A stretch of DNA of 64,000 nt. Source: a virus. Location: IMG/VR virus record IMGVR_UViG_3300047480_000598, positions 1 through 64,000 of that record, one strand, 5' to 3'. Below are positions 357 through 35,215 of this stretch, one piece after another. Each line of letters begins with the position of its first letter. Within the stretch, counting starts at the first letter, position 1. The translations under genes were made by a program, and so were the position numbers. Below the pieces are notes generated by a model that was not told where the DNA came from, did no database searches, and was given only the letters and a program-made list of their open reading frames with translations.

Positions 357-389
357 TTTTAAATTGTTGCGCAAAAACAACAAACGCTG

Positions 390-588: not shown

Positions 589-593
589 CTGTT

Positions 594-1124
594 ATGAAAA
601 TTAATGAAATCATCTCAGAAGCTCACCATTCCATATATCAATCTATTGGCATTGGACATTGGATTGTAGATATTGACACACATTTTATAGTTACTCTTAC
701 TGATCGAAGTGATGTGCTCAATCCAAAGGAAGTTTTCAATATTATAACACATGCCTGTCTCTCAGAAGAATTACAAAAGATTCCTCGTGGCACAGGTGCA
801 TTTGTTCAAGACGTAGTTTCTAAAATTTCTGTTTATCTATACCGTTATAAGAACAAGCCCAACCGATTACGTTTAGAAACCGTTCTCACTCCAGATATGA
901 TTCCAAAGGATCCCATTATTCATATATATGTTATACCTGATGACTACACAATATCTGCCCGTGACGTTAAGCGGATGGATCGAGCAAGATCAACTGTTCG
1001 CTCTATGGGCAGGGACGCTATTAGCCAAGATCTCGAGCAGGATAAGAATATTATGCACACCATGTCACAAATGAGTCGTAACGAGCGTAGGGCATTTAAA
1101 AAGTTTCTTCAGCGTACCAAATAG
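594..1124 (+). CDS. Putative internal head protein with CTS-like N-terminus (MKINEIISE)
   Basis: ORF track 564..1124; start moved to ATG 594, behind the late promoter; N-terminal motif shared with neighbours. Confidence 0.7.
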   Translation: MKINEIISEAHHSIYQSIGIGHWIVDIDTHFIVTLTDRSDVLNPKEVFNIITHACLSEELQKIPRGTGAFVQDVVSKISVYLYRYKNKPNRLRLETVLTPDMIPKDPIIHIYVIPDDYTISARDVKRMDRARSTVRSMGRDAISQDLEQDKNIMHTMSQMSRNERRAFKKFLQRTK

Positions 1125-1555
1125 CCCATTTTACCGTCGGAACTTTGAGCAGATTTAGTTTTGAATCCTTGTTGTTTAAGTATTCTCACAAATCTGTTAT
1201 AAAGTTTCTGACGGTTCAATTCTTCTGCGGTAAACTTTAGGGTAGCATCTTTGTGTTGCTGTTTAAAGTTTCTCAGAATATCTATTACAGTAGCAAACAC
1301 AGTTTTTGACTCAGATCCAAATTTGCCCGTAATACCATAAGGGTCGTTTGATTCAGGGTCTTTAAACTCCACATCCCAAACGTCCATAAACTTAAGTTCA
1401 CCGTGTTCGTCATATATGGGGATGAGGAGGAAAGTCACTTCCATATCAATATTGTTAACTTCAAAGTGTGCGACCTTATGATCGTTAGCCTGGATGTGCC
1501 ATTGCCAAGGTGCGGGTCGATCTAAAAATTCTGTAATAAATTCTTGTGCTTTCAT
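1109..1555 (-). CDS. Putative internal head protein with CTS-like N-terminus (MKAQEFITE)
   Basis: 148-aa ORF; N-terminus close to the T4 IPII/IPIII CTS MKTYQEFIAE. Confidence 0.7.
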   Translation of the reverse strand: MKAQEFITEFLDRPAPWQWHIQANDHKVAHFEVNNIDMEVTFLLIPIYDEHGELKFMDVWDVEFKDPESNDPYGITGKFGSESKTVFATVIDILRNFKQQHKDATLKFTAEELNRQKLYNRFVRILKQQGFKTKSAQSSDGKMGYLVR

Positions 1556-1656
1556 AGTATTAATGTGGGTAGATAATCGATTATATAATCTGTGCTACCG
1601 TTTTTCCGCTTCGCGGTTTTTGTGTTCTTCTATATTTATTTTTGATAATTAAGTAT

Positions 1657-2388
1657 ATGTTATGGATATATGGAGATAGTTACTCGGCAAATTTTGTTCA
1701 TTTGAAATCCACCTGGTCGTGGGTTCGCCGAATTAATCAAAGATTAGCTTGTGAATCAAAAAATTTTAGTTTTGCTGGATCTGGGTTGGGATATACGTAT
1801 TGTAAGTTCAATGAAACGTGTGATCAGTTTTCCGAAGGGGATCATGTTATCATTACTCTTACAAGTTTAAACCGACGATATTTCTTTTATGATCAGCCTA
1901 TGTTAGTAAACTTGTGGAATTTGAAATATCCTTCTTACGATATGAACGGGGACAGGATTAAATTCAACCCGTCGGAAGCTGATGCATTTAGAAAGTATTT
2001 TATGTTTTTAGATAAGAATACAAAGTTAGAAGAAGTAAATCTCATTAACTTTTTGACTATGGTAGATAGTATTAGTCGAAGGAAAAAGTTGGGTAGTGTA
2101 ACTATTATGTCTTGTTTTGAAGATTCTTATCTAGTTGCTAAAACAGTAGCAATGGAAAATGCAATTGTAGCTAGCGGGTGGTTATATAAGATTAGTACAG
2201 AAGAGTGTGCTCGAGAAGAGTTAGTTAGTCAAATTCAAACAGATGATAAGCGTGCATGTCATCTAAGTCAGCATAATCATGGCATTCTTTTGTCTAAACT
2301 CTATAATTCAATAGTGAATAAAACTCCGTTAGACCTTACGCAGGGATTTAAGAAAGGATTCATTCATGAGGTATGTGATGTTAAATGA
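1657..2388 (+). CDS. SGNH/GDSL hydrolase-like protein
   Basis: WIYGDSY (block I), NFSFAGSG (block II), C-terminal DKRACH; start at ATG 1657 matches paralogue 15013 (MTLWVFGDS); TAATTA 5 nt upstream. Confidence 0.65.
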   Translation: MLWIYGDSYSANFVHLKSTWSWVRRINQRLACESKNFSFAGSGLGYTYCKFNETCDQFSEGDHVIITLTSLNRRYFFYDQPMLVNLWNLKYPSYDMNGDRIKFNPSEADAFRKYFMFLDKNTKLEEVNLINFLTMVDSISRRKKLGSVTIMSCFEDSYLVAKTVAMENAIVASGWLYKISTEECAREELVSQIQTDDKRACHLSQHNHGILLSKLYNSIVNKTPLDLTQGFKKGFIHEVCDVK

Positions 2389-2935
2389 AAGTAGCCCCGA
2401 TACACCTCTTGGTAGTATTAGTCCCGATTTAAACCTAAGTAAGTTATGGTTATGTAACATGCTTAAGAAGTTTGAATTGACGAAATTTGATAACATTTAT
2501 ATTCTAGGTTCTTGGTATGGATCGATGGGCCTATTCTTATTAACAAAGGGTATTGAGTTTGATGATGCATATAACATTGACTGGGATCATGAAAAGACCA
2601 CCAATGTAATGCATATGTTAAAGCGTATGAAGTTAAATGATTGTATTCATGCTGTTCGAGCCGATGCAAATGATATTGAATATAAAGGTGATTGTCTAGT
2701 GATCAATACTTCAACGAATGACATCGAAGGGCGAGATTGGTTTGATAATATACCTTCGGATACTCCTGTAGTATTGCAAGGTAAGAGTGATCAAGAAAAG
2801 TCTAATGGGGAAGATACTATGGAAAAGTTTAATCGTGCATATCCGTTGAGTCAAACTTTATTGTTAGATTTCTTAACGGTGGAAGATGTTAAGGGCAATC
2901 CATATTCTAGATTTATGAAGATAGGTTACAAATGA
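2366..2935 (+). CDS. Class I SAM-dependent methyltransferase-like protein
   Basis: IYILGSWYG (motif I-like), NIDWD acidic second strand, ADAN, LVINTS. Confidence 0.55.
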   Translation: MRYVMLNESSPDTPLGSISPDLNLSKLWLCNMLKKFELTKFDNIYILGSWYGSMGLFLLTKGIEFDDAYNIDWDHEKTTNVMHMLKRMKLNDCIHAVRADANDIEYKGDCLVINTSTNDIEGRDWFDNIPSDTPVVLQGKSDQEKSNGEDTMEKFNRAYPLSQTLLLDFLTVEDVKGNPYSRFMKIGYK

Positions 2936-2958
2936 TCTTGTAGCGGTAAATATAAATT

Positions 2959-3771
2959 ATGCGTATACATGAAATTATTAGCGAAGCGGATACAGACCCT
3001 AAATTAATTCAACGAATGAAAGACTTGTGGGATCAAGGATACAGTTCGAAAGAAATCAGCAATGCACTTGGTTGGACTAAGAGTCAAATAGGCCATAATT
3101 TGAATCGACATTATCATGATCGCGAAGGCAAAAGAAAACCCCACCCTCCTGAACTAATTGCAAGAGTCGGCGAGTTGTGGGACGAAATTCCAAGTCCCAC
3201 AAAGATAGCAAAAGAATTAGGAAAAACAGTTCAAGAAATTAATACTATTCTATATCTATATCATTCTGATAGGATAAACAAGTTCGATAATTCTCGTAGT
3301 TTAACTGATCAAGAAATTCAAGATATAATATCGAGTTATTCTCAAGGCGAGACTACTAATAGTATATCCAGGAAATATAAAGTGTCTCCAACCTTTATAC
3401 AAGACCTTATTATGAGAGAGATTGGTAAAGATGCATATGATGAGATAATGAATTCTCGTAGATTAGTTCCAGGAGCCTTTGTACCTAACAAGATGACAGA
3501 CGAGATGAAAGAAACAATTATTAAATTATTTGTCTCTGGTTATAATTTTACTGACATAAAGAAACAAATTAACGATGTGTTAGTAAGAAGTACAATTAGT
3601 AAATTTTTAAAGAATCATCCAAATTGGAACCAAATGCTACAGGCACATAAGTTAGCTAGAGATCAAAAGAAGCCTCAAGTAGCAACAACTAAACGAATGA
3701 CCAGTAAGCCAATGAGCAAAGGCATTAAAGCTATTCGTAAAATCGGCCCTGTCACCGGAGGTAAATTATAA
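2959..3771 (+). CDS. Tandem helix-turn-helix protein with CTS-like N-terminus (MRIHEIISE)
   Basis: Four HTH-like units (GYSSKEISNALG, SPTKIAKELGKT, GETTNSISRKYKVS, GYNFTDIKKQI); basic C-terminus; TAAATA at 2947-2952. Confidence 0.65.
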   Translation: MRIHEIISEADTDPKLIQRMKDLWDQGYSSKEISNALGWTKSQIGHNLNRHYHDREGKRKPHPPELIARVGELWDEIPSPTKIAKELGKTVQEINTILYLYHSDRINKFDNSRSLTDQEIQDIISSYSQGETTNSISRKYKVSPTFIQDLIMREIGKDAYDEIMNSRRLVPGAFVPNKMTDEMKETIIKLFVSGYNFTDIKKQINDVLVRSTISKFLKNHPNWNQMLQAHKLARDQKKPQVATTKRMTSKPMSKGIKAIRKIGPVTGGKL

Positions 3772-3772
3772 G

Positions 3773-4621
3773 ATGAGATATAGAGAATTTTTACTAGAAA
3801 GTAGTTATGATTCTATGATTGTCAGTCTTAAGAATCAATATCGTGGGTCGAAACAACGTGAATTTATTGATAATTGTGTCCTCTTTGCAAAAACTAAATT
3901 AAAGAAAGATGAGCGTGTTGTATGGTTTTTACGTATAGCAAGATCTATTTTATTTGATATTAAAAATAAAACTAATACTAGATTTGAGCTTATAGGGTAT
4001 AATACTGTTCCTACAAAATTTTTAACTTATACTGTACCTTATTTTGAAGACGAACTTAGAGTTGCAGAGCACATTAATCAAGGGAATGTTAAATTTGATA
4101 ATTATATATTTGGAAACAAATCGTTATCGACAGTAATACATGATTTCAACAATATATCCGAAGAGTGGAAAGTAAAAAAATCATTAAAAAAAGTCCCTAT
4201 TCAACCCGGTGATAAAAAACTTATTGATTTTGGAGATGGGAGTGCATGGTGGTTTTTAGATCGTGCGGCGTGTGAGAAAGAAGCCACTGCCGGAAGACAT
4301 TGCGGGAATCGACCAAATCAATGGAGATCTAATCACCGATTACTTAGTTATCGAGAAAATGGTCGAGTAAAAATGACTTTTGTACTAGAAACTGACACTG
4401 GTATGCTATTAGATCGACGTGCAGTTGCAAATCAACATCCAGATCCAAAGTATTATGAAAAAATCATAGCACTTTTAAAACTTCCGATTATAACCGATCT
4501 ACTTCCTAAAGACGTAAGAAACGATTTTCAATTGTCGAATTTATCTCCAGCACAACAACACCAGCTTCGTATTGAAAAGCCTAGTTTGTTCAAACAAACT
4601 GATAAATGGGAAGCTGACTAG
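3773..4621 (+). CDS. PcfJ-like domain protein with CTS-like N-terminus (MRYREFLLE)
   Basis: EATAGRHCG...LLSYRE...MTF...RAVANQHP resembles the PcfJ EG..M.HCV..SLR..T.E..G..N..P pattern. Confidence 0.55.
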   Translation: MRYREFLLESSYDSMIVSLKNQYRGSKQREFIDNCVLFAKTKLKKDERVVWFLRIARSILFDIKNKTNTRFELIGYNTVPTKFLTYTVPYFEDELRVAEHINQGNVKFDNYIFGNKSLSTVIHDFNNISEEWKVKKSLKKVPIQPGDKKLIDFGDGSAWWFLDRAACEKEATAGRHCGNRPNQWRSNHRLLSYRENGRVKMTFVLETDTGMLLDRRAVANQHPDPKYYEKIIALLKLPIITDLLPKDVRNDFQLSNLSPAQQHQLRIEKPSLFKQTDKWEAD

Positions 4622-4638
4622 CGTAAGAGAAATAAGAC

Positions 4639-5496
4639 ATGAGATTTAAAGAATTTTTAATAGAGGCCTCTATCTATAATCTGATCAAGGGACATCCGCA
4701 TCGTAATCATATATTGGACACTGGTATCGTAAAAGAACTCAGTCATCAAGCAGATTTCAAAGAAGCGCCATTAGAAGATCTAAGCGAGTTTCCCGAAAAG
4801 TATCCTTATGATGATGCAGAGTATTATATCTATGTTCTTGTGTTAGGTGATCAAGGATCGGCATTATTACGGTATGATCGATATTATGACGATCATTCAT
4901 TTCTTGTCTATGGTATACAAACAATGCCAAATGGGGAAGTCAAAACTCGCTATAGTGTAACCGAACTCTTTTATCCTTATAATATTGTACAATTTTTACA
5001 TGGATATACCGGGGAAAATTCTAAAATGTATATGGCTCTAAACCCCGGAAATCAAGTTCGAGAACGACTTCGTCGTTCAAGAGTACAAACAAGACAGGTC
5101 CCATCGTTCGGCGAGTCCCTTAGAATCATGTATAAACACATTTTACCGATTATATCCGATGAAGTTCCTAAAGCATTATTTCGTATGCAATCTCTATACA
5201 GACAAGCAATTGAACAATCTAATTATGCACTTGCAGAACAGATCTCTCAAAAAGGTACACAACTTGACGCATTTTTAAGAGTAAAAGATACAGGTATTCT
5301 CAGGGTAGAAATTCACCCGATAGTATCTGGTATTGCTAAAAGAGGATATAAGACATGGGCACTTAAACGACGGCCAGGTGTTGTACCGCCTATTGAGCGA
5401 TGGGCACATAATGCTTCATCAATGTCAAAGCCAGAATTTAACTCGTTTGTAGAAGCATTTAAAGAATACCTATTTAATACTGAACCGATGGATTGA
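4639..5496 (+). CDS. CTS-tagged protein (MRFKEFLIE), member of the local six-gene paralogue family
   Basis: LSHQADF, LVLGDQGSAL and ILPII..AIEQSNYALAE motifs shared with genes at 7990-13875. Confidence 0.65.
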   Translation: MRFKEFLIEASIYNLIKGHPHRNHILDTGIVKELSHQADFKEAPLEDLSEFPEKYPYDDAEYYIYVLVLGDQGSALLRYDRYYDDHSFLVYGIQTMPNGEVKTRYSVTELFYPYNIVQFLHGYTGENSKMYMALNPGNQVRERLRRSRVQTRQVPSFGESLRIMYKHILPIISDEVPKALFRMQSLYRQAIEQSNYALAEQISQKGTQLDAFLRVKDTGILRVEIHPIVSGIAKRGYKTWALKRRPGVVPPIERWAHNASSMSKPEFNSFVEAFKEYLFNTEPMD

Positions 5497-5498
5497 CT

Positions 5499-6452
5499 AT
5501 GAGAGCAAATGAATTCATAAGTGAAGCGTTAAACACATCACGATATTCGGCACAAGTAACTAATGCTATGCTTGATAGTCTTGCAGAAATTATTATCACC
5601 GATTATAACGAATCTAATCGAAGAAGAGAATTTAATTTTGATATACAAAATAGTTTTTTAGAAGCTGCCGAAGCCTCCTTAAATTCTACTAAGCGGTGGG
5701 GGAACAAAAAGGTTAGTCTAGCATTTAGTAATAACACCGAAGGGGCAAGATTTAATAGAGCCACTTATGAAATGACTGTGTCATCTGGTTTTGTAGATAT
5801 ACTAGTACAAAACATTGAAGAATTTTGTGAGTTGTATATAAAGGAAAGACAAATTCCATTAAAGATATCTAACATCAAACCAGGATTATACAATAGTCCT
5901 GTTCATGATACTGTTTCGTTCATTGTAGGGTTAATAATACATGAATTCACACACGGAGTACAACAAACTCTACAAAAAAACATATACCCAACCCACGGGT
6001 ATCTTGCACCAAGAGCTGACGACTATGATGCAGCAATGTCTAGAATCAATAAATTGCCTTTGGAAAAAGATCATAAAATTTATGCTAGTAGTCCGGACGA
6101 AATCGGTGGTCATGCCGCGCAAGCAGCCGGTCGAATAATTTCGTTAATGGCTCATATGCCAAAAGAAGAACAAATTAAGAAATTACAAAAATTACTTAGC
6201 AACCCTAAAGAGTTTGTTTCTATAGTAGCTCGTGGTGTTAAAGATACTGCGTTTAATGTATTAAGATTTAATCAATCGCATAGAAAGGAAAAATATGTAT
6301 TTGATCAATATTTAAAACGATGTTATGAGTTACTTCTTGATTATTTAAAATATATTCAAGGTCGTAATGTTAATCCTACGATCGATGATAAAGTTAATGC
6401 TAACTATGAAAAATGGTTAAAATCTCAAAAAGGGCCGGGAAACAAAAAATGA
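5499..6452 (+). CDS. Zincin-like metallopeptidase domain protein with CTS-like N-terminus (MRANEFISE)
   Basis: IIHEFTHGVQ (HExxH) plus downstream YASSPDEIGGHA third-ligand motif; start moved from 5493 to ATG 5499. Confidence 0.65.
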   Translation: MRANEFISEALNTSRYSAQVTNAMLDSLAEIIITDYNESNRRREFNFDIQNSFLEAAEASLNSTKRWGNKKVSLAFSNNTEGARFNRATYEMTVSSGFVDILVQNIEEFCELYIKERQIPLKISNIKPGLYNSPVHDTVSFIVGLIIHEFTHGVQQTLQKNIYPTHGYLAPRADDYDAAMSRINKLPLEKDHKIYASSPDEIGGHAAQAAGRIISLMAHMPKEEQIKKLQKLLSNPKEFVSIVARGVKDTAFNVLRFNQSHRKEKYVFDQYLKRCYELLLDYLKYIQGRNVNPTIDDKVNANYEKWLKSQKGPGNKK

Positions 6453-7669
6453 GATATAGAGAATTTTTACTAGAAGCCAAACCTGACAATTTAGGTGATG
6501 GATTAATCAAAAAAATTGGGCAAGCATATTTTCGAAAAGTAAGAGTTATGCCCAATGCTGAATCTACCGATCCTGTTGCAGTTGATCAAGCAGTATTACA
6601 AACAGGATATAGTTTAGCAGATAGCATGTATAATCATGTCGGACCTAAGAATCTAATATGGGTTGCAAAACAATTTGTACAAGATCCTCACTTTATGCCC
6701 GAAGATTTTCCTGCGTGGGCTGATACATTAGGTGAATATACTTCGGCAGTCGATGCCCGTAAACCTATTGAAAGAGATCTTAACAAGTTTGCAAACATTA
6801 ATCAATTAAGGACAGAAATTCGCAAGTATCAAGATGAAGCTGTAGGAGAAGTTTACGACATTATTGTTCCTGTATTAGACAAGTTTGTTCAACAAGGTCA
6901 AGCAGCATGGTTATATAAAGGAAAAGACTATGCTATCTATCGTCCCGACACTTGGCAAGCCAGTAATGAGTTTTATCGAGTATTAAACAACAAGGGAATC
7001 AACACAAGTTTGTGTGTAACATACAGTGAAGATATGTATAAACAGTATACTAAGCGTGGCGTATTTGTTTTAATCATTGCACCGGATACGGCTTACATCT
7101 CTTATATTAGTACTGGAGATACTAACGGCCATTATGCTGCAACTTCGGAGTTTTCGGATATGTACAATGATCATCAACATGGATTAGAAGAACAAATTAA
7201 GATGTTCCCGAGACTTAAACCGATCCTAGCCGACTATGCAAAAGAGAGTAATGATGTCGAAGTATTAATCTATCTAAATCCTGCATTAGCAAAGAAGAAG
7301 TATCCAGAGATGATGAATCTTGTAGAGAAATATAATATACGACTTATTAGCCCTGAATCTGATGTAGCAGTCGAGCATGGTGACCCCGAATACTTAGATG
7401 TTGATCAAGCAGAAAATTTTGTGAAAGTTATGAATGATCCGAAGAACTCTAAAGAAGTTAACAGACTAAAAAACCTAAAAGAATATGGGTTACGTGCTTT
7501 AGGTATCTCAAAGACTGAAAAATCAATCTTCGGAACTCCGCTTATATTATGCCAGATTCCTGGCTCTAGTTTTGGTTTTGGAGACAGGGATAACTTTGAA
7601 CTATTTCCAGCCGAATTCCTGTGGTCAGACATACATGAAGATTACTTGATTAATATTCTAGCTTTTTGA
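6449..7669 (+). CDS. CTS-tagged protein (MRYREFLLE), related to the 13880 protein
   Basis: ATGA overlap with the upstream stop at 6449-6452; YAIYRP..AS...TSLCVT..MYKQYTKRGVFVLI aligns with YKIFIV..AA...AIWCTG..HFIHYTSKAMVFVV. Confidence 0.65.
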   Translation: MRYREFLLEAKPDNLGDGLIKKIGQAYFRKVRVMPNAESTDPVAVDQAVLQTGYSLADSMYNHVGPKNLIWVAKQFVQDPHFMPEDFPAWADTLGEYTSAVDARKPIERDLNKFANINQLRTEIRKYQDEAVGEVYDIIVPVLDKFVQQGQAAWLYKGKDYAIYRPDTWQASNEFYRVLNNKGINTSLCVTYSEDMYKQYTKRGVFVLIIAPDTAYISYISTGDTNGHYAATSEFSDMYNDHQHGLEEQIKMFPRLKPILADYAKESNDVEVLIYLNPALAKKKYPEMMNLVEKYNIRLISPESDVAVEHGDPEYLDVDQAENFVKVMNDPKNSKEVNRLKNLKEYGLRALGISKTEKSIFGTPLILCQIPGSSFGFGDRDNFELFPAEFLWSDIHEDYLINILAF

Positions 7670-7912
7670 TTGTTGAAATTTAGTAAATCGTCCCTTCTCA
7701 CCACGTACTTGAGGACCAATCGGTTGACGACCTTGTTTAGCTTGACTAATAGCAATGTCTGTGCCGTTATTAAAGCTATTGCTCGGTGTAGATTGTTTAC
7801 GTCCAGTATTATGTTTTCGTTCCCATTCCCATCCGGCTTTATGCCCCGAACAGTCTTTTGTACATTGGCGCCCAAAGAAACTTAACTCGGTAATAATTTC
7901 TATAATTTTCAT
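7658..7912 (-). CDS. Small CTS-tagged protein (MKIIEIITE) with CTKDCSGHxAG motif
   Basis: 84-aa ORF; TAAATA (7918-7923, minus strand) 5 nt upstream; C-terminal RGEKGRF. Confidence 0.65.
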   Translation of the reverse strand: MKIIEIITELSFFGRQCTKDCSGHKAGWEWERKHNTGRKQSTPSNSFNNGTDIAISQAKQGRQPIGPQVRGEKGRFTKFQQSKS

Positions 7913-7989
7913 TATAATATTTATGTGTTCTTAAAGTTAAATGTAAAATAAAAAGAGAATAAATATACAATAACCATTTGGACAAAAAT

Positions 7990-10260
7990 ATGCCAACTAA
8001 ACCTACAGATACAAGAACAAATGCATTCCCAGAATTAGATGATTTTGACGGAATTCTAAAACCAAAGAAAGTAAACCCTTTATCAAAAGTTGAACCAGAA
8101 CCAGAACGTCATAGTCGTTCTAAAGCAGGTGACCCGGACTTAAGAAGAGCTTCTGCTGCTGATACAAGAGCAGCAACATCTGGAATTAATATTTCAGCAG
8201 GTGGAAGAGATAGATTACATCAAATGCCAGATCTTGGTCCTGACGAAATTGACGATGAAGAAGCGGCAAGACGAGCTGGATTAAGGCATGGCGGAGGACT
8301 TGAACCTCGTGAACCGGGTACTGACTTAGTGCAGCCGCGAGATTTAGCGAATGCTGCTCAAAATGCAGTTCAAGTTCAAGGTATGCAAAATCCTAAGTGG
8401 CATGCTATAAGACATTTGCCTGCATACTTAGCTAGTCAAGTTCGTAAGATGGGACGGGGAACATTTGGATTAATAACAGATACTCCTATTGAAGATATTA
8501 TTACTATTGCAAATTTAGGCGGACAAGGCCCAAACACTATAGAAGAAGTTAATGCAGTAGCAGGATGGATAATAGCCAACGGAGAGTTTGTTCGTAATGT
8601 TGATTTTGATTTTAGTCAAGTTATGCCCGATTACGAACCGTTAGTACGAGAATTTCGTGTTGGCGGTATACGATTCCACCTTGTACAAGATGATCGAGGA
8701 AATCCGGACGACTTTGACCCAAACGATCCAAGCAAGAAGGGAACATACGTTTATGCTTATCCTGAGCAAGATGCCAAGGAACCAGAATCGTTAGTAGTTA
8801 CTGATATTGGTCTTCCGGGACCCCCCGGCGGTATGCGTAGATTACCGAGATTTGAAGGTGAATCTTTAGCAAACGAAATGAGAAGAACTATTCAATTATT
8901 AGAATCGTCATATAGTAGTCCTTACGATATATTTAAAATGCAACAACCACAGGATAATAAAAAGGAGAGTAAAGTGGCCAGTTTATCGGATGAAATTAGA
9001 AAGAACATTCAATTATTAGAATCATTAGAAGAAGATATCGAAGGTTCGAAAGAAATTGATCAACTAATGGAAGAATTAGTTGCATTAGAAGCATATCGTG
9101 GAAAAGCGTCGAAGGCACGATATATGGACCCAGAAGCTCAAAAGAAGCGTATGGCTCGTCATTCGACATTAGCACCTTTAATATCAAAAGATCCTGGCGG
9201 ACCTCGATTAATTAGTTGGTTGCATAAGCAGTTAGGACTATCGGCGGAAGCTGACTGGGGCAGAGATCAGGCAGTTCGTTACAATGCAGCAACAATGCCG
9301 CATATGCCTAAGCAATCAGACAAAGAAATTTCTACTAGGTGGGGTTCCGGTGTATGGAGTGACAAAGTTAGAGATTCTCGTCAGTTATGGAGTATCATTA
9401 AGAGCTCTCCGGATAATTTCATCGTTTTTGTTGGAGAAAAAGGTGTAGGTGCAGTTCGTCCGAAGCCTGGTTATATCGAATCCATGAGAAAGTCCAAGGA
9501 CAACTATGAACCGGCGGCCGATAGAAACTTACCTTACATTTATGCGTTCTTTACAGCTGATCAGCAATGGTATAATAACAGCTCCGATGATGCTGGGGTA
9601 TTTGATCCGGACACCGGAAAGATTGCAACTAGAGGAGGATTATTCCATGGAGGAGATCAAAATTTTAATATAGTCGATGCTGTTACATCAATGATCGGTA
9701 AACTTAAACGAGCATATGCTGCATATCCTGCACCGGCTGATTATCCTCATCCTGAAGATCTAGAGTACGACGACGAAGGAAATCCGATCCCACGTTCGAA
9801 AGATAGACCATCGGTTGAAAGAGAAAAGATTGCTCAAAGAGCAGCATCAAGAGCAACCCCGGCAAATACTCGTAGTAAACATCAATTAGAAAGTGATGTA
9901 TTTGAAAAAATTAAACCTGTTATGTCTAAACTTTGCAAAAATGCTGTAGGAATGGTTAATCGAAAGGCACAGAGAGCAGTTAACGGCGGTAACTGGGACG
10001 AGGCCCAAAGAGTGGCTAGAGTAGGTAACACGCTTAACACAATTATTGCTGCACTTGACAATCCGCAAGAACCAGGTGTGCCTTATCAACTAAGTGAGAA
10101 ATATAGAAGCGCATTGCAATATGCTGCATCGGAACACGGAGTCAATATCAGAGATGATCAAGATTACAAAGACTTCTTATTGTCTGCATTAACCGCCGGT
10201 CCCGAAACTAAGTCGATCCTTGATGCGGTACGTTCGGTATTAGTCGGTGTACAACTTTAA
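7990..10260 (+). CDS. Large multidomain putative head protein; C-terminal half belongs to the local paralogue family
   Basis: ORF track 7978..10260 (TTG start); ATG 7990 more likely; TAAATA 7960-7965; internal repeats EMRRTIQLLES / EIRKNIQLLES. Confidence 0.7.
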   Translation: MPTKPTDTRTNAFPELDDFDGILKPKKVNPLSKVEPEPERHSRSKAGDPDLRRASAADTRAATSGINISAGGRDRLHQMPDLGPDEIDDEEAARRAGLRHGGGLEPREPGTDLVQPRDLANAAQNAVQVQGMQNPKWHAIRHLPAYLASQVRKMGRGTFGLITDTPIEDIITIANLGGQGPNTIEEVNAVAGWIIANGEFVRNVDFDFSQVMPDYEPLVREFRVGGIRFHLVQDDRGNPDDFDPNDPSKKGTYVYAYPEQDAKEPESLVVTDIGLPGPPGGMRRLPRFEGESLANEMRRTIQLLESSYSSPYDIFKMQQPQDNKKESKVASLSDEIRKNIQLLESLEEDIEGSKEIDQLMEELVALEAYRGKASKARYMDPEAQKKRMARHSTLAPLISKDPGGPRLISWLHKQLGLSAEADWGRDQAVRYNAATMPHMPKQSDKEISTRWGSGVWSDKVRDSRQLWSIIKSSPDNFIVFVGEKGVGAVRPKPGYIESMRKSKDNYEPAADRNLPYIYAFFTADQQWYNNSSDDAGVFDPDTGKIATRGGLFHGGDQNFNIVDAVTSMIGKLKRAYAAYPAPADYPHPEDLEYDDEGNPIPRSKDRPSVEREKIAQRAASRATPANTRSKHQLESDVFEKIKPVMSKLCKNAVGMVNRKAQRAVNGGNWDEAQRVARVGNTLNTIIAALDNPQEPGVPYQLSEKYRSALQYAASEHGVNIRDDQDYKDFLLSALTAGPETKSILDAVRSVLVGVQL

Positions 10261-10290
10261 TATTAATTGGTGTAGACCTTTAGTATAAGT

Positions 10291-11175
10291 ATGTCACTTG
10301 CGGCTGAGAGAATTAGAGAACTATTAAACGCGATCGAACTCTCTCAGCCGCATCTTCTACTCGAAGAGACGGATTACAACATCTTAAAAAATGCTGTTGG
10401 TGGAAAAGAATTGTTTAAGTTCTTACGACAGAAAAATTTAACTAATCATTTAGGTGATTTTCAAGAAGCAGAGACTGGTCCTAATGGGTATCCTTCGATA
10501 TACCAGTTTGGGATTGCTGTAGGGGATAGCGGATGTGCATTTCTTGAATATGTCGGTGTTACTTATAGTCAATACAAAACAAATATATGGGTCCGAAATA
10601 ACAATGGGGAATTAGAACATAACGTTAAAAATGCTAATGCATTTGCTGTAAAAGAGCTTGTAGGACCAAATACAAAATTCTTTACAACTGGAATGTTTAG
10701 TACTGGAAAAGGCGAAGATGATCGTTTAAAATCTCGCAATTTAACACGGGTTAGAAATTACTCTAAAAACGAAAACTTGAATTATAACTTTAAACATATT
10801 ATATTTTATAACCTAATTCCAGTTTTAGTTCCTATACTTAAAAAATCTTTGTTAGATTCTCGGGATACTCTAAAAGATGCATTTGCTCGAGGTGATTACG
10901 CAGCAGCTGAGTCTTTAAGTAAACAATTAAATGATATCAATTCGGCAATAGTTGATTTGGGTCCCACAGAAAGAATTACACTTGGAGTGATGCCTCACAC
11001 TTTTATTCGAAATTTAGTTTTTGATGCTATCGAACAAACTTTTAACAGAATAGACAGCTCACACCCTGGAAAAGAAGCTAGAAGAATCGAATGGGGTGTA
11101 GCTGTAGCAAAGGGAGATAAGAAAGGCCTAGCGCAAATCATTCGAACTATTAAACAAAAGTTACATGTGAGATAA
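10291..11175 (+). CDS. Paralogue-family putative head/ejected protein
   Basis: N-term ERIRELLNAIE; GGKELFKFLR, AVGDSGCAF, LIPVL..DAFARGDYAAAE. Confidence 0.7.
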   Translation: MSLAAERIRELLNAIELSQPHLLLEETDYNILKNAVGGKELFKFLRQKNLTNHLGDFQEAETGPNGYPSIYQFGIAVGDSGCAFLEYVGVTYSQYKTNIWVRNNNGELEHNVKNANAFAVKELVGPNTKFFTTGMFSTGKGEDDRLKSRNLTRVRNYSKNENLNYNFKHIIFYNLIPVLVPILKKSLLDSRDTLKDAFARGDYAAAESLSKQLNDINSAIVDLGPTERITLGVMPHTFIRNLVFDAIEQTFNRIDSSHPGKEARRIEWGVAVAKGDKKGLAQIIRTIKQKLHVR

Positions 11176-11177
11176 AA

Positions 11178-12050
11178 ATGTCTACAGAACAAATTCGATC
11201 GTTATTAAACATACTGACAGAAGAACAAGATACTAAAATATTGAAGGGTGTAATCGGTGGGAAACAACTAGTACGATATCTTCGTCAAAGTGGTGTGTTT
11301 ACTCACTTAGCAGACTTTGTCGAAACTCCGTACGATATTAATCAAGCATATTATTCTCAAACAATCGTAGTCGGCGAACATGGCTGTGCATTTATGACCG
11401 GAAAGTCGACCGGAAGAATAGGTGATCTGCCTGACTGGAGTATTAAAGTATTTTATGATTCTGGATATGGGACTGCCCTCTTTAGCGTCGAAGGATTTCC
11501 TTACGGTATGGAGGAAAAAATCGGTCCAATTCGAAAGATGTATGTAAATGTAGAACCTGAAAAAAGTCAGCCTCGAAAATTTCCTAGAAAAGTAAATCGA
11601 AATCAAGAATTACAAGATCAGTATAGATTTGTTAGACACGAATTTGTGACAAGGATGTTTGAAAGACTAGTACCAGTTATGATTCCAGTAATTAAGCAAT
11701 CAGTAAATTCAATCAAACCAGCAATGAGTGATGCAGTTAATAACGGTGACTATGATCGATTAGAAATATTATCTAGAAGAGCAAACGTTCTAGATTATGT
11801 AATTGCCGGAATTAACCAATCAGAAAACGAATTATCTCCGCAACTCGAAGCTATTCTCAGTCAAATTATTATTCGTGTTTATTCTTTAACTACTGGGACA
11901 GAAGTCGACGATTACGATGATGTACGAGGTAGAACTATGATAGGTTCAACATACGACTATGTTGAATGGGCGTATACAACATATCGAGACAACAAATACC
12001 TCCCACAATTTGTTAAAGCATTTAAAGATTACTTGGCAGGAAAGATATAA
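11178..12050 (+). CDS. Paralogue-family putative head/ejected protein
   Basis: MSTEQIRSLLNILTE; GGKQLVRYLR, VVGEHGCAF, LVPVM..DAVNNGDYDRLE. Confidence 0.7.
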   Translation: MSTEQIRSLLNILTEEQDTKILKGVIGGKQLVRYLRQSGVFTHLADFVETPYDINQAYYSQTIVVGEHGCAFMTGKSTGRIGDLPDWSIKVFYDSGYGTALFSVEGFPYGMEEKIGPIRKMYVNVEPEKSQPRKFPRKVNRNQELQDQYRFVRHEFVTRMFERLVPVMIPVIKQSVNSIKPAMSDAVNNGDYDRLEILSRRANVLDYVIAGINQSENELSPQLEAILSQIIIRVYSLTTGTEVDDYDDVRGRTMIGSTYDYVEWAYTTYRDNKYLPQFVKAFKDYLAGKI

Positions 12051-12910
12051 TGAGCACTGAACAAATTAGATCACTATTAAATTTATTAAACGAATCGATA
12101 TTAGTCGAAGATAATATAAGTCAAATTTTGAATAGTGCCCCTTCTGGAGAATCTCTTAAGAAATATCTTTTAGGACGTATAATGTCTCACAAATCTAATT
12201 TTGAAAAAGGCACATTGTCGAGTATTATGAAAAGTAGAACTAAATTTTCTAAAGATAATAATGCAATAATAATCGGAACACAAGGGTGTGCATACAAACC
12301 AGCCGACGATGACGATTTTACTGACGGGGGAGCAGTACATATGTTTTCACCTTATGCTACTAGTCGCAGCAGGCCATATCTCGGATCGTATATGGTTATC
12401 AGTGGTAGGGTTGCAGATTTAAAACAAGTAATCGGTGATATAAAGGCAGTATATGTTGCAACAAATTTAATCGCTAAGGAAAAATCGGATGAGCAACGAT
12501 TTAGCAGATTCAAAGATCATTACAGTTACGTGCATACAATTAATAAAACAATATTACCGGTAATAGTTTCATATGAGCATCAGGTAATTAACAATTTAAA
12601 GAATAAAATTCATGATTTGTTTCGTGACGGAAAATATGAAGAAGCAGAACGAGTATCTAAATTTGCAAATTATGTTGTAAGATTATACACAGATTTTAAA
12701 AATCCTAATTCTGGAGCAGCATTTCGTTTTATGGAAACTGTCTTAAAAAATTTACTTATGAATCGTAGTATGGATTCTACCGGAGATTTTCAGGGGTTTA
12801 TAGATCAAGAAAAATTATCAAATTTTGTGATGGATGTTGCAACCGGAAGCACGACAAATCGATTAAAAGTGATACGATTCATTAAAAATTATTTGTCCGG
12901 AAATCAATAA
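12050..12910 (+). CDS. Paralogue-family putative head/ejected protein
   Basis: MSTEQIRSLLNLLNE; IIGTQGCAY, ILPVI..DLFRDGKYEEAE; TAATG stop/start coupling. Confidence 0.7.
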   Translation: MSTEQIRSLLNLLNESILVEDNISQILNSAPSGESLKKYLLGRIMSHKSNFEKGTLSSIMKSRTKFSKDNNAIIIGTQGCAYKPADDDDFTDGGAVHMFSPYATSRSRPYLGSYMVISGRVADLKQVIGDIKAVYVATNLIAKEKSDEQRFSRFKDHYSYVHTINKTILPVIVSYEHQVINNLKNKIHDLFRDGKYEEAERVSKFANYVVRLYTDFKNPNSGAAFRFMETVLKNLLMNRSMDSTGDFQGFIDQEKLSNFVMDVATGSTTNRLKVIRFIKNYLSGNQ

Positions 12911-13875
12911 TGAGTACGCAAGATTTTCGACATTTAATCAATCTTCTAACGGAATCGGCTGAACAGTTAAACGAAGCGCGGGCAACATCTATCTTAAAAA
13001 TTAACGAAAGTCGAAAAATTCTCTTAGAAGATCAACTCGGTCGAGTGTTAAGTAAAGAAGTCGGCGGCGATCAACTAATGAATATGTTAAGGTCTTTTCG
13101 AATAGTGTATAATGATGCAAAATTTGAAGAAGTTCCTTATAGTACATTACTCGACGATGATTTTTTTAAGCAACCGATGCAAGCAGTTGTCGTTGGGACA
13201 ACAGGTTGTGCTGTAGTACGTCCCGGAGGCCCGGGCCCATTTTTAAAGTATTTTGTTCGAGGCTATGAGAAAAAAGCAAAACTAAATCCGGAATATTTTA
13301 CAGCTAATCAACCTGGTCAGATGCTACACTTTATCGGCAATATTAAAAACTGTTATTTGATTCGTAATCCAAGACCGCAGACACAAGGATTAGAAATAAG
13401 AAGACAAAATAGAGCAAGTGAATATAAAAACGAAGAAACTTTAATGGATCAAATCTTTAAACGAATTCGTCCGATATTAGCACCAATCATTAAAAAATCT
13501 TTCTTAGAAGTGCAACGCTTGTACAAAGATGCTATCAATAATGGAGACTATCAGACCGCAGAGATGTACGGTAGTGCTGCTTCTAAATCAAATACTTTAC
13601 TTGCTATTTTATCAAAAGATGATTTAACATCTCTCCCAGGGCACGATGGCGGAGTTAATTATAGTCGTAAATTTGTCGAGATAGTTCGAAATGCATTTAC
13701 TGATATGTATAAAAAATATCCTCCTTATGATTTATATGGTGGCCCGGAGGATACTGCTGAAGATGTAGAAGCTATGAAACTTTATTCGAACTTTTTAAGT
13801 AATGCAGCAGATAATACCGGTAAAGAGGTTAAATACATTATTGATAGATTTAGAGAATATTGCTTAACAGGATAA
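12910..13875 (+). CDS. Paralogue-family putative head/ejected protein
   Basis: MSTQDFRHLINLLTE; GGDQLMNMLR, VVGTTGCAV, IRPIL..DAINNGDYQTAE. Confidence 0.7.
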   Translation: MSTQDFRHLINLLTESAEQLNEARATSILKINESRKILLEDQLGRVLSKEVGGDQLMNMLRSFRIVYNDAKFEEVPYSTLLDDDFFKQPMQAVVVGTTGCAVVRPGGPGPFLKYFVRGYEKKAKLNPEYFTANQPGQMLHFIGNIKNCYLIRNPRPQTQGLEIRRQNRASEYKNEETLMDQIFKRIRPILAPIIKKSFLEVQRLYKDAINNGDYQTAEMYGSAASKSNTLLAILSKDDLTSLPGHDGGVNYSRKFVEIVRNAFTDMYKKYPPYDLYGGPEDTAEDVEAMKLYSNFLSNAADNTGKEVKYIIDRFREYCLTG

Positions 13876-13879
13876 TTAA

Positions 13880-15004
13880 ATGTTTTTACGTGAATTACTT
13901 TATAGAACAAAAAGAAGGCTTTTAAACGAAGCATTATCAAAAGGATCTCAAACTGTACTTACTCACAAAAGTAAAGCTAATTTGTTTCCAGCAATCGGAG
14001 ATGCATTAAGAGACGATGCAATGCACACTCCTCAATACTTTTTTGGACAAGCTGCGGCAGTTAAAAAAATGACCGACGAACAAGCAGTTACTTGGTTCCT
14101 TGAAAAATTAGATGCCATGGAAGAAGCAGGATACAACGGAGTTAGAACGTCAACTGACGGTAAGTTTAATTTGTGGGTTGCAACATCATATGCAAATGGT
14201 CGCGATACTTGGGAAGATATTAAAGGTAAGTTACAGCCAATAATGTATAAATTTAAAGTATTAAAAGATGCAAACCCATCTCCTCTTCGCCCAGAACATT
14301 CAAGTATAACAAATTTTTCCAGCATACGAGAAGCTGCTCTTTATATAACAACACATTACGGAAATGTACTCGACGAGTTACTGAAAAGAAAGGAGACATC
14401 TGTTGCTGAAAAGTTTAACAATAAATTTGCTAGGGCATTCGAACTAGTAGACAATGAAGATTACAAAATTTTTATCGTTTTAAATCGATGTGCTGCAATG
14501 AAATTAGCTAGAGGTGCAATATGGTGTACAGGAATGTTACATACTGATGATCATTTTATTCACTATACTAGTAAGGCAATGGTATTTGTTGTCCTCCCAA
14601 AAGATGCTCAACATGTCGACAAGGCGAAAGGAGGAAGACAAATTCAGGGACCAGAAAAATATCAGTTTGATGCCGGCGGTCCCTACTTTATGGATATTGC
14701 CGACGACATGCAATCTAGAGATTTTGTAAAAAACAGATTTCCTTATCTATATAAAGATGTAGTCGGTGCATTACAAGAAAATAAAGAAGATTTAACCGAC
14801 ATTATGATCAACTTATCTCAAGACGAAAAATTGTTAATGGACGATCGATCAAAAACATTGAAATACGATGTAGACAATGAAATTCAAAAATTGAGAGTCT
14901 TTATTGACCGAGGATATATGTCCGAAGTCGAACGGCCGCCGGCTCCTGAAGTAGATCCTAATGCAGCACCTGAAGCAGGAGCACAACCTCCGCAAATTCA
15001 ATAA
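13880..15004 (+). CDS. Putative head protein with WCT-motif domain (MFLRELL...LLNE)
   Basis: 374-aa ORF; GAIWCTG..F..Y..EKYQF motif; Pro/Ala-rich tail. Confidence 0.65.
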   Translation: MFLRELLYRTKRRLLNEALSKGSQTVLTHKSKANLFPAIGDALRDDAMHTPQYFFGQAAAVKKMTDEQAVTWFLEKLDAMEEAGYNGVRTSTDGKFNLWVATSYANGRDTWEDIKGKLQPIMYKFKVLKDANPSPLRPEHSSITNFSSIREAALYITTHYGNVLDELLKRKETSVAEKFNNKFARAFELVDNEDYKIFIVLNRCAAMKLARGAIWCTGMLHTDDHFIHYTSKAMVFVVLPKDAQHVDKAKGGRQIQGPEKYQFDAGGPYFMDIADDMQSRDFVKNRFPYLYKDVVGALQENKEDLTDIMINLSQDEKLLMDDRSKTLKYDVDNEIQKLRVFIDRGYMSEVERPPAPEVDPNAAPEAGAQPPQIQ

Positions 15005-15012
15005 ATAGATTC

Positions 15013-15828
15013 ATGACATTATGGGTATTCGGCGATAGCTATGCTAACGGTTATGAATCAAAAGATTGGTTTTGGTCCGAATCGTTAGCAACTAAACTTT
15101 CTACAGATTTACAAAATTTTGGCGAAAGTGGCACTGGTCTAGAGTATACATATGCTGAATTTCAAAATTGTTATCATAAAATTCAAAAGAACGATGTTAT
15201 TGTAATTTGTTTTACACAATTCCATCGACAATTTTTTATTCCATCTCATCCACAAATTTCAATAGCAGCTTCGTTAGATAATGTGTTTATAACACCTAGA
15301 GAAATTAAAAGAGAATATAAAACTGCATTTGAACTTTTTCATAAAAAGTTGTATAGAGAAGAAAATGCAAAAACTAACTTTACAAATTTTTTATTCTTTT
15401 TAGAATACGTATCTAATCAATTAGACTTACAAATTATCGGATTACCTTGTTTTTCCGATGTTGAAGAATTCTTATTGCATAACAAATATAAATTCCCTTC
15501 AATACATTTTGCATCCGGTAATTTATTTAATATATCAAAGGACGAGTGTGTTGACGACGAAGTAGTAGAAGTATTTTACTTTCACGAAGCAAGAGCAAAT
15601 CACATGTGTAGAAGAAACCATGAGGTACTGTTTAATAAGTTATTAAATTATCTAGATAACAAAAAAGACATTAATCTTAACACAGATTTTCATAAATCTT
15701 TTATGACCAAAGAGTTATGTATTGATAAAGATTTTGCAAATTACGAATATTTAGATCCTAATAAGATGTGTGAAGTAACAAAACACAACTTGTTTCATCG
15801 TTTTATCAAAAGACCAAACTTTCCTTAA
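15013..15828 (+). CDS. SGNH/GDSL hydrolase-like protein (paralogue of 1657..2388)
   Basis: WVFGDSY, NFGESGTGLEYTY, EARANH; TAAATA 15002-15007, 5 nt upstream of the ATG. Confidence 0.65.
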   Translation: MTLWVFGDSYANGYESKDWFWSESLATKLSTDLQNFGESGTGLEYTYAEFQNCYHKIQKNDVIVICFTQFHRQFFIPSHPQISIAASLDNVFITPREIKREYKTAFELFHKKLYREENAKTNFTNFLFFLEYVSNQLDLQIIGLPCFSDVEEFLLHNKYKFPSIHFASGNLFNISKDECVDDEVVEVFYFHEARANHMCRRNHEVLFNKLLNYLDNKKDINLNTDFHKSFMTKELCIDKDFANYEYLDPNKMCEVTKHNLFHRFIKRPNFP

Positions 15829-30230: not shown

Positions 30231-31088
30231 TTAATATTTAATTAAATCTTTAATTCTATTAAGTTCTGTGGATTCGTTCATTCTTGATGCAGCGTCGGTA
30301 TATATCTTTGCTCTAGCTGAATCACCTGCTCTTGTGAGTTCTGCTGCTTTTGCTAATAAATCTTGTTTTTGCTGACTCGGAGGAACAGTTGCATACGGAT
30401 TAGGCATACCTGTTGCTGCTGCCATGCTTTTGCTTAAATCTTGCTTTGCTGTACGTCCTTGTTGATAGTTTTGTGGAACTGGAGGATTTGGATCTGTTTG
30501 CCCCGGTTGTTGTCCGTACATTTGCGAATATGCTTGTCTATATGCTTGTTGAGTTTTTGGACCAAATTTTCCGTCGACTGCAATTGGATAACCCATAGAT
30601 ACAAGTTGTTGTTGAATTGCTTGTACTTCTTGAGGGCTATTATATCCGTATTGTGCACCTAAGTCTTTGAATGCAGGTTTTGCACTTGTTACAGGTTTTG
30701 TAGTTGGGGTTTTTGTTGCTGCTGTGCCTGATGCAGGAGCTTGGGTCGTTGCTTGCGCAGGTGCAGATGCCTGTGCAGTTGCTTGTGGTTTAACATCCCA
30801 ACCTGTTGTAGCAACTCCAGATGGAGAATATTGAGTTGGACTCGGTGCAGTTGCTTGTTGTGGATATGCTCGTTTGTATGCAGGATTTGTCGGATCTGAT
30901 GGCATAACATCTTGCCCTTGTCCTCTTGCGATTGCTGCATCTCTACGTCCAGATCGTGCCCATTTTTCAAGATCGTCTACTCCCTGACCGGCTTTTTGTT
31001 TAACCCACTCCCATCCAGTAGGATCTGTTGGATTATACCCCGGTTGCTCAGCTTCGACTAACTTAATATATTCATGAATTGATTTCAT
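30231..31088 (-). CDS. Peptidoglycan-binding-domain protein with CTS-like N-terminus
   Basis: EVQAIQQQLVSMGY..AVDGKFGPKTQQAY (PG_binding_1); MKSIHEYIKLVE; Ala/Thr/Pro linker; C-term MNESTELNRIKDLI. Confidence 0.75.
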   Translation of the reverse strand: MKSIHEYIKLVEAEQPGYNPTDPTGWEWVKQKAGQGVDDLEKWARSGRRDAAIARGQGQDVMPSDPTNPAYKRAYPQQATAPSPTQYSPSGVATTGWDVKPQATAQASAPAQATTQAPASGTAATKTPTTKPVTSAKPAFKDLGAQYGYNSPQEVQAIQQQLVSMGYPIAVDGKFGPKTQQAYRQAYSQMYGQQPGQTDPNPPVPQNYQQGRTAKQDLSKSMAAATGMPNPYATVPPSQQKQDLLAKAAELTRAGDSARAKIYTDAASRMNESTELNRIKDLIKY

Positions 31089-34624: not shown

Positions 34625-35215
34625 TTACTTTCTTGTTTTAACTTCGTCGTAGTGTGAACTTAATCTACTAAGAAGTGACTCGCTTATTGATGAAATAACA
34701 GCAGCCTTCTTAATAGATGCCATAGCATTGTCGCCTTTTTGAGCCATTGGATACGCTGCTTTTTCCTTATTTAGATCGTCACCGCTAATAATATTATCAA
34801 ATTCTTGAGTGGCTGGTTCGTTTTCATATTCTTCCTCGTCCATCTCCGGTTCTTCCATTGGCTCTTCGTCAGGTTTGCTAACACCTAATGGTATTTCTTT
34901 TGGTTTATCTTGCGGATTACCTACAATGATAGAGTCTTTTTCTTTATTTGCCGACGGAAGATTGGTATCGATGTTTCGTAGAATGTCCATTAAGTCACGA
35001 ATACCGCCTGCACCCTGCCCGTTCATGTTAACACTCATGCTAACTGAATCTTGTTGCTTCGGTTGTGACGGTTGCTCTGCGGAACATTGGCCTTCCATAC
35101 CAGATCCACATTCGTTAGTTTCGGGCATAGACGGCGGAGCCATGATACCAGTTCCTTGATTCATGTCGCCTTCGTCGAGTCTTTTTAAAGTTTTATATAA
35201 ATCTAAAAAATTCAT
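34625..35215 (-). CDS. Acidic putative prohead core/scaffold-type protein
   Basis: MNFLDLYKTLKRLDE N-terminus; low-complexity acidic middle; C-term SESLLSRL. Confidence 0.6.
   Translation of the reverse strand: MNFLDLYKTLKRLDEGDMNQGTGIMAPPSMPETNECGSGMEGQCSAEQPSQPKQQDSVSMSVNMNGQGAGGIRDLMDILRNIDTNLPSANKEKDSIIVGNPQDKPKEIPLGVSKPDEEPMEEPEMDEEEYENEPATQEFDNIISGDDLNKEKAAYPMAQKGDNAMASIKKAAVISSISESLLSRLSSHYDEVKTRK

Follow-up and report, generated by a model that had tools for sequence, protein, structure and literature searches.

Candidate capsid-targeting peptides on a gene array of an uncultured jumbo phage related to T4

We studied a 64,000-nucleotide (nt) stretch of viral DNA (positions 1 to 64,000 of IMG/VR record IMGVR_UViG_3300047480_000598; in the following "the window"), in which positions 594-15004 hold an array of genes that share short N-terminal peptides ending in (L/I)xE, here called tags. 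The tags match the capsid targeting sequence (CTS) of phage T4, as read from the T4 record NC_000866, and the same genome encodes a gp21-family protease with its catalytic residues within a T4-type head module. Judged from these sequences, the array probably encodes internal head proteins of a jumbo phage of the T4 superfamily, i.e., proteins that are targeted to the head and trimmed by the prohead protease.

The window comprises the first 64 kb of a 162,335-bp contig, which is estimated to be ~44% complete. Its large terminase shares 54% identity with the counterpart of the Pseudomonas jumbo phage PA5oct, and its scaffold protein is nearest to that of PA5oct (~41%), followed by Atu_ph07, Phosso and the Rak2/CBB group. 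Because of these terminase and scaffold affinities, we assign the source to the jumbo T4 superfamily; on this evidence it is an uncultured member of the PA5oct / Atu_ph07 / Rak2-like branch, within a freshwater clade. Neither megablast of the array nor tblastn of the protein encoded at 4639 produced a match in 50,697 phage records.

Tagged genes and tag statistics

A first-pass annotation of this DNA had described an array of about 14 tagged genes and quoted their N-termini. Each of these N-termini is encoded where it had been placed, including two in the head region (35832 and 31088). At least 13 genes of the interval are indeed tagged, but 1657-2388 and 2366-2935 are untagged and 7990-10260 lacks an N-terminal tag. 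The genes of the array that carry a tag or a related leader, with lengths in amino acids (aa), are as follows.

594..1124, + strand: 176-aa basic protein (pI 9.3); tag MKINEIISE then A
1109..1555, - strand: 148-aa protein; tag MKAQEFITE then F; DUF6934 match sub-threshold
2959..3771, + strand: 270-aa basic protein (pI 9.7) with several repeats resembling helix-turn-helix (HTH) motifs; tag MRIHEIISE then A
3773..4621, + strand: 282-aa basic protein; tag MRYREFLLE then S
4639..5496, + strand: 285-aa member of a family of ~290-aa proteins; short tag MRFKEFLIE then A, in place of the family's long leader
5499..6452, + strand: 317-aa basic protein with HExxH; tag MRANEFISE then A
6449..7669, + strand: 406-aa acidic protein; tag MRYREFLLE then A
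7658..7912, - strand: 84-aa very basic protein (pI 10.1); tag MKIIEIITE then L
7990..10260, + strand: 756-aa two-domain protein; no N-terminal tag; C-terminal domain of the ~290-aa family
10291..13875, + strand: four tandem paralogues of the ~290-aa family (294, 290, 286 and 321 aa); leaders of 15-40 aa with 1-4 (L/I)xE sites
13880..15004, + strand: 374-aa protein with a third leader type; MFLRELLY..RRLLNE then A

We searched the strict motif ^M[KR]xxE[FILVY][ILVF]xE at every ATG in all six frames of the whole contig. Nine ATG-headed instances were found (594+, 1555-, 2959+, 3773+, 4639+, 5499+, 6449+, 7912- and 113231-), eight of them within 594-7912, while 113231- falls beyond the window. 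Each of the nine heads an open reading frame (ORF), with lengths of 84-406 aa. In 30 block shuffles that preserve composition, the mean is 0.03 instances. The motif without its Met is present only twice inside called proteins, in a total of 51,908 aa, which predicts 0.005 instances at 135 N-termini, and the equivalent degenerate DNA pattern gives 9 matches compared to 0 for its reversed control. As a background, loci from related phages contain 10 strict tags in 2.05 Mb, compared to 8 in 7.3 kb here. Among the other ~120 genes of the contig the motif is found at none, be it replication, recombination, metabolic, halogenase/oxygenase, tail or highly expressed structural genes. An equal frequency of the motif at the N-termini of replication and metabolic genes would have refuted the first-pass reading, and this is not what we see.

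The residue that follows the tag is Ala or Ser in 6/9 cases, as in T4. When the motif is relaxed to any (L/I)xE among residues 1-20, it retrieves 14/16 array genes and 29/119 others. On the codon level the tags differ; e.g., Ser at position 8 is written TCA, AGC, AGT or TCT. Since codons vary across the nine tags, the constraint acts on the peptide and not on the DNA. Altogether, tagged clients number at least 13 in the 15-kb array and ~18 in the ~44% of the genome at hand.

Correspondence to the T4 capsid targeting sequence

The T4 CTS on internal proteins was reportedly described by Mullaney and Black in 1996. In T4, the first ten residues of IPIII are enough for head targeting, propeptides of internal proteins comprise 10-19 residues, and gp21 cleaves after the Glu of L/I-X-E; residues 4 and 7 of the CTS serve targeting, residues 8 and 10 processing (PMC9026906). 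T-even heads load diverse proteins that have the CTS alone in common (PMC3012670; PMC9026906; bioRxiv 10.1101/2022.04.14.488369). The respective N-termini in NC_000866 are MKTYQEFIAE then A for ipII and ipIII, MKTFKEF...ITE then A for ipI, MAKINELLRE then S for gp24, MELITELFDE then D for Alt, MNEPQLLIE then T for gp21 and MLKEQLIAE then A for gp22.

The 9-residue tag corresponds to the T4 CTS minus one residue after Lys/Arg. When aligned accordingly, T4 positions 4, 7, 8 and 10 are occupied by I/Y/F/A, F/I, I/L and Glu, with Glu in 9/9 tags and Ala at the first targeting position in two. All tags, be it the nine 9-mers, the single 10-mer or the leaders of 12-40 aa, end in (L/I)xE. The 10-mer MKSFKEYLTE (35832) is in exact T4 CTS register and nearly matches the start of IPI. 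Applied to T4 itself, the corresponding 10-mer pattern has three matches, namely ipII, ipIII and gene 61.1. The latter (NC_000866 19101-19130, - strand) is a 54-aa hypothetical ORF beside the primase gene and starts with MKTFKEFIKE.

A shared N-terminus might have another cause than head addressing. That is, it could be a feature of translation initiation or a helix bound by a chaperone or a protease adaptor (degron). The tags are AT-rich and open with Lys/Arg codons, like many well-expressed genes, and most array genes lack a clear Shine-Dalgarno sequence. However, conservation is found on the peptide level with varied codons, and initiation needs neither two fixed Glu nor hydrophobic residues at the T4 targeting positions. 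The confinement of the motif, which spares even highly expressed structural genes, and its match to the experimentally defined signal of a phage with the same protease family also speak against this explanation, which we consider improbable.

Head module and prohead protease

Beyond the window, the contig has a head module of the T4 type whose genes follow the order in T4; they are listed below.

Portal: PF07230, E 1e-109
79-aa protein at the gp67 position, between portal and protease: PHROG 13986
Acidic 161-aa protein (no PHROG) and 149-aa protein: between the portal and capsid genes
Prohead protease (208 aa, contig 105414-106040): PF03420 Peptidase_S77, E 2e-25; PHROG 207, E 4e-58; BLASTP to T4 gp21, E 2e-20
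364-aa coiled-coil scaffold: PHROG 10922; 577 homologues in IMG/VR
gp23-type capsid protein: PF07068, E 2e-99

By position, the scaffold, the acidic 161-aa protein and the 79-aa protein correspond to the T4 scaffolding core (gp22, gp67, gp68). Within the protease, VDHP and GVSSRG align with the catalytic His and Ser that are mutated in crystallised T4 gp21 (PDB 5JBL). A complex prediction for two scaffold copies and the 84-aa tagged protein scored 0.00; it was run without controls and speaks neither for nor against binding. The 161-aa and 149-aa ORFs overlap (contig 106051-106948, - strand) and correspond to one 289-aa ORF (250911-251780) in a 259-kb sister contig, termed G001 in the following. 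A frameshift, a programmed shift or a difference in assembly could explain the split.

Tag conservation and cargo turnover

Word-indexed protein searches found only 1-3 close orthologues per array protein, and the related-locus search found no relative of the 5499 protein. Where orthologues exist, the tag is kept. The three 6449 orthologues, all from metagenomes, begin with MRATEFLLE, MRYKEFLIE and MRVNEFLLE, each followed by AKPENLGDG. They start at the tag, of which M, R, E5, F6, L7 and E9 are invariant while the other positions vary. Since all three begin with MR..EFL.E then AKPENLGDG, we place the start of this gene at 6449 and not at the ATG at 6413. The 3773 orthologue P0111 reads MRATEFINE then SSYDSMI, compared to MRYREFLLE then SSYDSMI here. 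Orthologues of the 84-aa protein start with MKLKEILSE then LSFYGR and with MKISELIDQEILE then QLTYFGR.

In the closest relative at the helicase locus (L114, 13142-13828, + strand), homologues of the 84-aa and 148-aa proteins are fused into one 229-aa ORF with the single tag MKLKEILSE, in which the 84-aa part precedes the 148-aa part. We also considered whether the array is a conserved syntenic block beside the helicase gene. This was rejected, as there are almost no tags in the respective loci of 80 relatives; the array is thus a variable region.

The sister contig G001, whose scaffold is 81% identical, has 6 matches of the DNA pattern and 8 of the strict protein pattern, and its tag variants include MRFNEFNILNE, MRAIDFITE and MKLRELFES. 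No homologue of any array protein of the window was found in it. Its tagged or variant-tagged cargo includes the following proteins with Pfam assignments.

G001 23720-24724: VanY D-Ala-D-Ala carboxypeptidase, E 1.7e-11
G001 62062-63015: zeta-toxin-like P-loop kinase (Zeta_toxin family), E 1.6e-11
G001 165097-167304: DUF6267 protein, E 6e-35

Sub-threshold matches to a cell-wall hydrolase and to Peptidase_M91 are also present in this set. In agreement with the first-pass annotation, the cargo is varied, and its composition also changes from one relative to the next.

The functional labels of the first-pass annotation for the cargo fared differently. Nearly all array proteins are without Pfam or PHROGs assignment, including the 594 protein, and many are basic (pI 9-10). 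An HTH protein is the only label with profile support (2959-3771; PHROG 323, E 5e-10), while every Pfam HTH match stays below the cut-off. The proposed peptidase (5499-6452) has one HExxH motif (HEFTH) but no Pfam hit, and its nearest Atlas structure clusters, putative metallopeptidases, are weak neighbours (TM 0.35-0.44). The PcfJ-like label is not supported: for 3773 and 6449 no Pfam family was found even at E <= 5, and 13880 has only unrelated marginal matches.

Given that genes of the array are partly related, one may ask whether the tagged genes are diverged paralogues that have kept their first nine codons by common descent, with a tag that is functionless now. Five genes and one domain in the interval are truly paralogous, and the four long-leader genes are tandem duplicates. 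The remaining eight short-tagged proteins (i.e., without 4639), in contrast, show no pairwise similarity by BLASTP at E <= 0.01 and span 84-406 aa, and neutral decay would not spare exactly nine codons. Furthermore, the 3773 orthologue deviates at four positions of the tag and at none of the seven residues that come after it, and the tagged proteins of G001 belong to unrelated Pfam families. We regard common descent as a highly improbable source of the pattern. The proteins had been called otherwise unrelated, which holds for most of them, whereas 4639, the four genes of 10291-13875 and the C-terminal domain of 7990-10260 form one family. A further grouping of 3773, 6449 and 13880 was rejected: a MAFFT alignment can be drawn, but BLASTP finds no significant similarity beyond the tag.

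The tags of 3773 and 6449 are identical in DNA over exactly 27 nt, and the identity ends at the tag boundary (P ~0.003 given the peptide and the genome's codon usage). The CTSs of T4 ipII and ipIII likewise share identical 30 nt. Since the 3773 orthologue bears a different tag, the simplest reading of these sequences is a recent copy of the tag between 3773 and 6449.

The ~290-aa family and the other leader types

BLASTP links the four genes at 10291-13875, the 4639 gene and the C-terminal third of 7990-10260 into one family (E 1e-6 to 2e-20). A profile search of 1.84 billion representatives identified 99 clusters of this family, all of which are metagenomic and unnamed. About 55 of the 99 clusters are ~290 aa long and have a common leader of the form x...F..L(C)E-S-x-L-x-E followed by A-S-T. 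Its last Glu is one of only 4-6 nearly invariant columns of the family, and two residues ahead of it stands L, I or V without exception. The short 9-mer takes the place of the end of the long leader in 4639 and one other member (MKYRELLQE then AST).

The AlphaFold model of the family (51 sequences, mean pLDDT 84.8) shows a helix at 3-18 and a non-helical linker at 19-26, which holds the nearly invariant Glu25; a small beta domain and a helical bundle come next. A fold search of the ~290-aa model (Foldseek against the PDB and a wide VIA-align search) returned generic helical hairpins only, with a best Z of 8.2 over 71 residues.

In about 40 members of 450-1440 aa, the domain is C-terminal and a leader-like ...LLExLLxE followed by STLS... 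is internal. The 756-aa protein of the array has IQLLE then S (twice) and VALE then A ahead of its C-terminal domain. The leader may mark an internal cut in such large proteins, as judged by its position. The family of the 756-aa protein is itself widespread and metagenomic. At the N-terminus its members conserve an FPELDDLDDLL-like motif, their middle domain reads W-H..LPGY..GQGPN..RFHVVQD..YIYAYPE, and a domain of the ~290-aa family forms the C-terminus.

The first-pass annotation had taken these leaders for a second address label next to the short tag. This is not supported in that form, since the leaders of the second class belong to a single family, in which they are conserved, and are found internally in large proteins, too. 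The most fitting description is that of a leader that is specific, and would be ancestral, to this family and has at least one predicted protease site. It is possible that this leader also targets the head.

The third leader type, MxLRELF/L, is common to 13880 and its orthologue at locus L127 (MLLRELFSS), two large G001 proteins and the 79-aa protein of the head module, where the start MxLRELF is invariant in 46 of 48 relatives. This brings up another explanation, namely that the tags do load the proteins and are cut, but that the proteins are assembly-phase accessories of the core or scaffold, or permanent internal structure, and not effectors. The start of the 79-aa protein, given its gp67 position and its invariance, is in accordance with this, as is the processing of the core proteins gp22, gp67 and gp68 by T4 gp21 (PMC9026906). 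The ~290-aa and 756-aa families are also widespread and conserved, unlike typical effectors with fast turnover. Most tagged genes, however, are nearly without homologues and absent from G001 despite its close scaffold, and such turnover fits accessory cargo better than assembly parts. In addition, the cargo of this relative contains host-directed enzymes, i.e., VanY and the zeta-toxin-like kinase. An assembly or structural role is therefore the less favoured option, and we consider it unlikely.

Expression and virion hints

ATAAATA forms the core of the T4 late promoter TATAAATA. Twenty-three gene starts have it on the right strand no more than 80 nt upstream, and many of these genes head structural operons; TATAAATA is present 12 times versus ~40 expected from base composition. 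Within the array region, ATAAATA precedes 594, 7912 (13 nt upstream), 7990 (32 nt upstream) and 15013, and a version with one mismatch is found before 2959. For 594, TATAAATA is placed 13 nt upstream of the ATG. This late-promoter-like motif could drive the whole array late. A scan of 1-17500 for sigma-70 promoters and terminators was uninformative apart from a terminator at 222-246 ahead of the array.

At several genes, ATAAATA ends only 3-6 nt before the ATG, i.e., at window positions 581-594, 7912-7925, 15000-15013, 32929-32941 and 38142-38155 as well as at contig positions 107300-107313 and 111427-111437. If these copies are promoters, the respective mRNAs would have little or no leader. 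In other structural genes, ATAAATA is found 25-30 nt upstream, together with an AAGGAG ribosome-binding site.

Two further tagged genes are located in the head region of the window.

35215..35832, - strand: 205-aa protein beside the terminase; 10-mer MKSFKEYLTE
30231..31088, - strand: 285-aa basic protein with a peptidoglycan-binding domain (PF01471, E 3.6e-6, above cut-off); leader MKSIHEYIKLVE then A

Of all tagged proteins, only the 205-aa protein has a counterpart in a cultured phage, the homologous PA5oct gp282 (E 1e-14), which is annotated in RefSeq as a structural protein by ESI-MS/MS. The aligned N-terminus of gp282 has YDA where LTE stands here. In T4, Asp at that position stops cutting but not targeting (PMC9026906), and the PA5oct YDA fits this.

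PA5oct (NC_071039.1) has a sole 9-mer match, MKIKEIILE, at 180226-180252 (- strand), five codons after the start that is annotated for the hypothetical gene gp213; this gene divergently adjoins the head maturation protease gene. In the window, a 196-aa very acidic low-complexity protein (34625-35215, - strand) lies between the tagged 205-aa protein and the terminase. Its start, MNFLDLYKTLKRLDE, may represent a further variant of the leaders, or the protein may belong to the core.

Three untagged genes accompany the array.

1657..2388 and 2366..2935, + strand: 243-aa protein with a GDS motif and 189-aa protein; within the interval, outside the tagged set
15013..15828, + strand: 271-aa protein; paralogue of 1657-2388 (E 2e-26), just right of the tagged genes

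Both paralogues have G-D-S-Y almost at their start, which recalls SGNH/GDSL hydrolases, and no Pfam hit even at E <= 5. The first is near the left end of the array, after the first two tagged genes, and the second closes its right side.

Discussion

The evidence favours the following scheme. Each protein would carry an N-terminal address peptide, mostly the 9-mer M-[KR]-hydrophobic-x-E-[FI]-[IL]-x-E, with a longer leader in one family and MxLRELL as the address of one gene. The peptide would dock the protein on the scaffolding core during prohead assembly, a gp21-type serine protease would cut after the terminal Glu of (L/I)-x-E such that the mature protein is freed inside the head, and the cargo would exit with the DNA and act first in the new host. 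We infer packaging and cleavage of the array proteins from their sequences, and likewise we infer their ejection and an anti-defence role.

Some observations weigh against this scheme. In the cultured jumbo relatives PA5oct, Atu_ph07, CBB, Ecwhy_1, Phosso and Vibrio 2.275.O, the pattern has 0-2 matches, which is near chance. A bare (L/I)xE near the N-terminus is common (24% of non-array genes) and thus unspecific, such that the weight lies on the full motif. Where the leader of the ~290-aa family is internal in large proteins, it cannot serve as an N-terminal address. Due to the YDA of gp282 in place of LTE, the N-terminus may remain on the mature PA5oct protein. The promoter assignment is motif-based. 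Finally, the scaffold, the 161-aa and the 79-aa protein are without Pfam family; the scaffold has no recognised relation to T4 gp22, for which no direct comparison was made.

On the sequence level, the likeness to the T4 CTS system comprises an N-terminal peptide of 9-19 residues that ends in (L/I)-x-E with a like residue pattern, a genome that also encodes an S77 protease and a gp20/gp23 head module, and unrelated, often basic cargo that varies between relatives while the tag is constant. In both systems, two genes share identical tag DNA (30 nt in ipII/ipIII, 27 nt in 3773/6449). Different from T4, the main tag is one residue shorter and the set is larger, as had been proposed: at least 13 tagged genes in one 15-kb array compared to three pattern matches in T4. 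Furthermore, the cargo here reaches 406 aa, and one large family has a longer leader, which is also found inside bigger proteins.

Two other systems are of interest for comparison. In phiKZ, 201phi2-1 and SPN3US, a diverged homologue of gp21 cleaves ejection or inner-body proteins at S/A-x-E (PMC9026906, PMC5694885, PMC10052503). Like these giant phages, the phage studied here would have many packaged proteins trimmed after Glu by a gp21-family protease, which is a prediction in our case, and propeptides with several cleavage sites resemble our long leaders. The phiKZ-like phages differ in their S/A-x-E motif, their long propeptides and the lack of a shared short tag, whereas the phage described here belongs to another branch and keeps the T4-type L/I-x-E and a T4-like CTS. 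For DarB of phage P1, an N-terminal signal is enough to load the anti-restriction protein or a reporter into the head (PMC9024508). P1 thus shares the N-terminal capsid targeting signal, but has a single known client in the stepwise Dar system, no short motif across many genes and no reported gp21-type cleavage of the signal. In the literature that could be searched, we found no paper on such expanded tag sets in uncultured T4-type phages. New here are the freshwater jumbo clade far from the T-evens, the number of clients, their clustering and the ~290-aa family with its built-in leader.

A more far-reaching idea, which we offer tentatively and consider doubtful as a whole, is that the short tag is both an address and a portable recombination cassette. 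Identical tag DNA would let the clade swap any gene into head delivery. The result would be a hyperplastic, pre-made effector arsenal, to which wall enzymes, kinases and DNA binders would belong as well as the ~290-aa family, whose members bring their own leader. Some of the large proteins might travel as precursors, which the head protease would divide at leader copies in their interior.

What is described here builds on T4 biology and introduces no new principle. That a T4-like CTS is kept in a branch with no recognisable gp22-like scaffold suggests that the pair of signal and protease is older and more portable than the T-evens suggest, and the tag is possibly useful for the engineering of protein delivery. 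If the tag works as in T4, it provides a sequence-only listing of the proteins that a giant uncultured phage injects ahead of gene expression, i.e., those likeliest to be the first to meet host defences. Since almost all of this cargo is without known family, the array is a candidate short list for new anti-defence or takeover activities.

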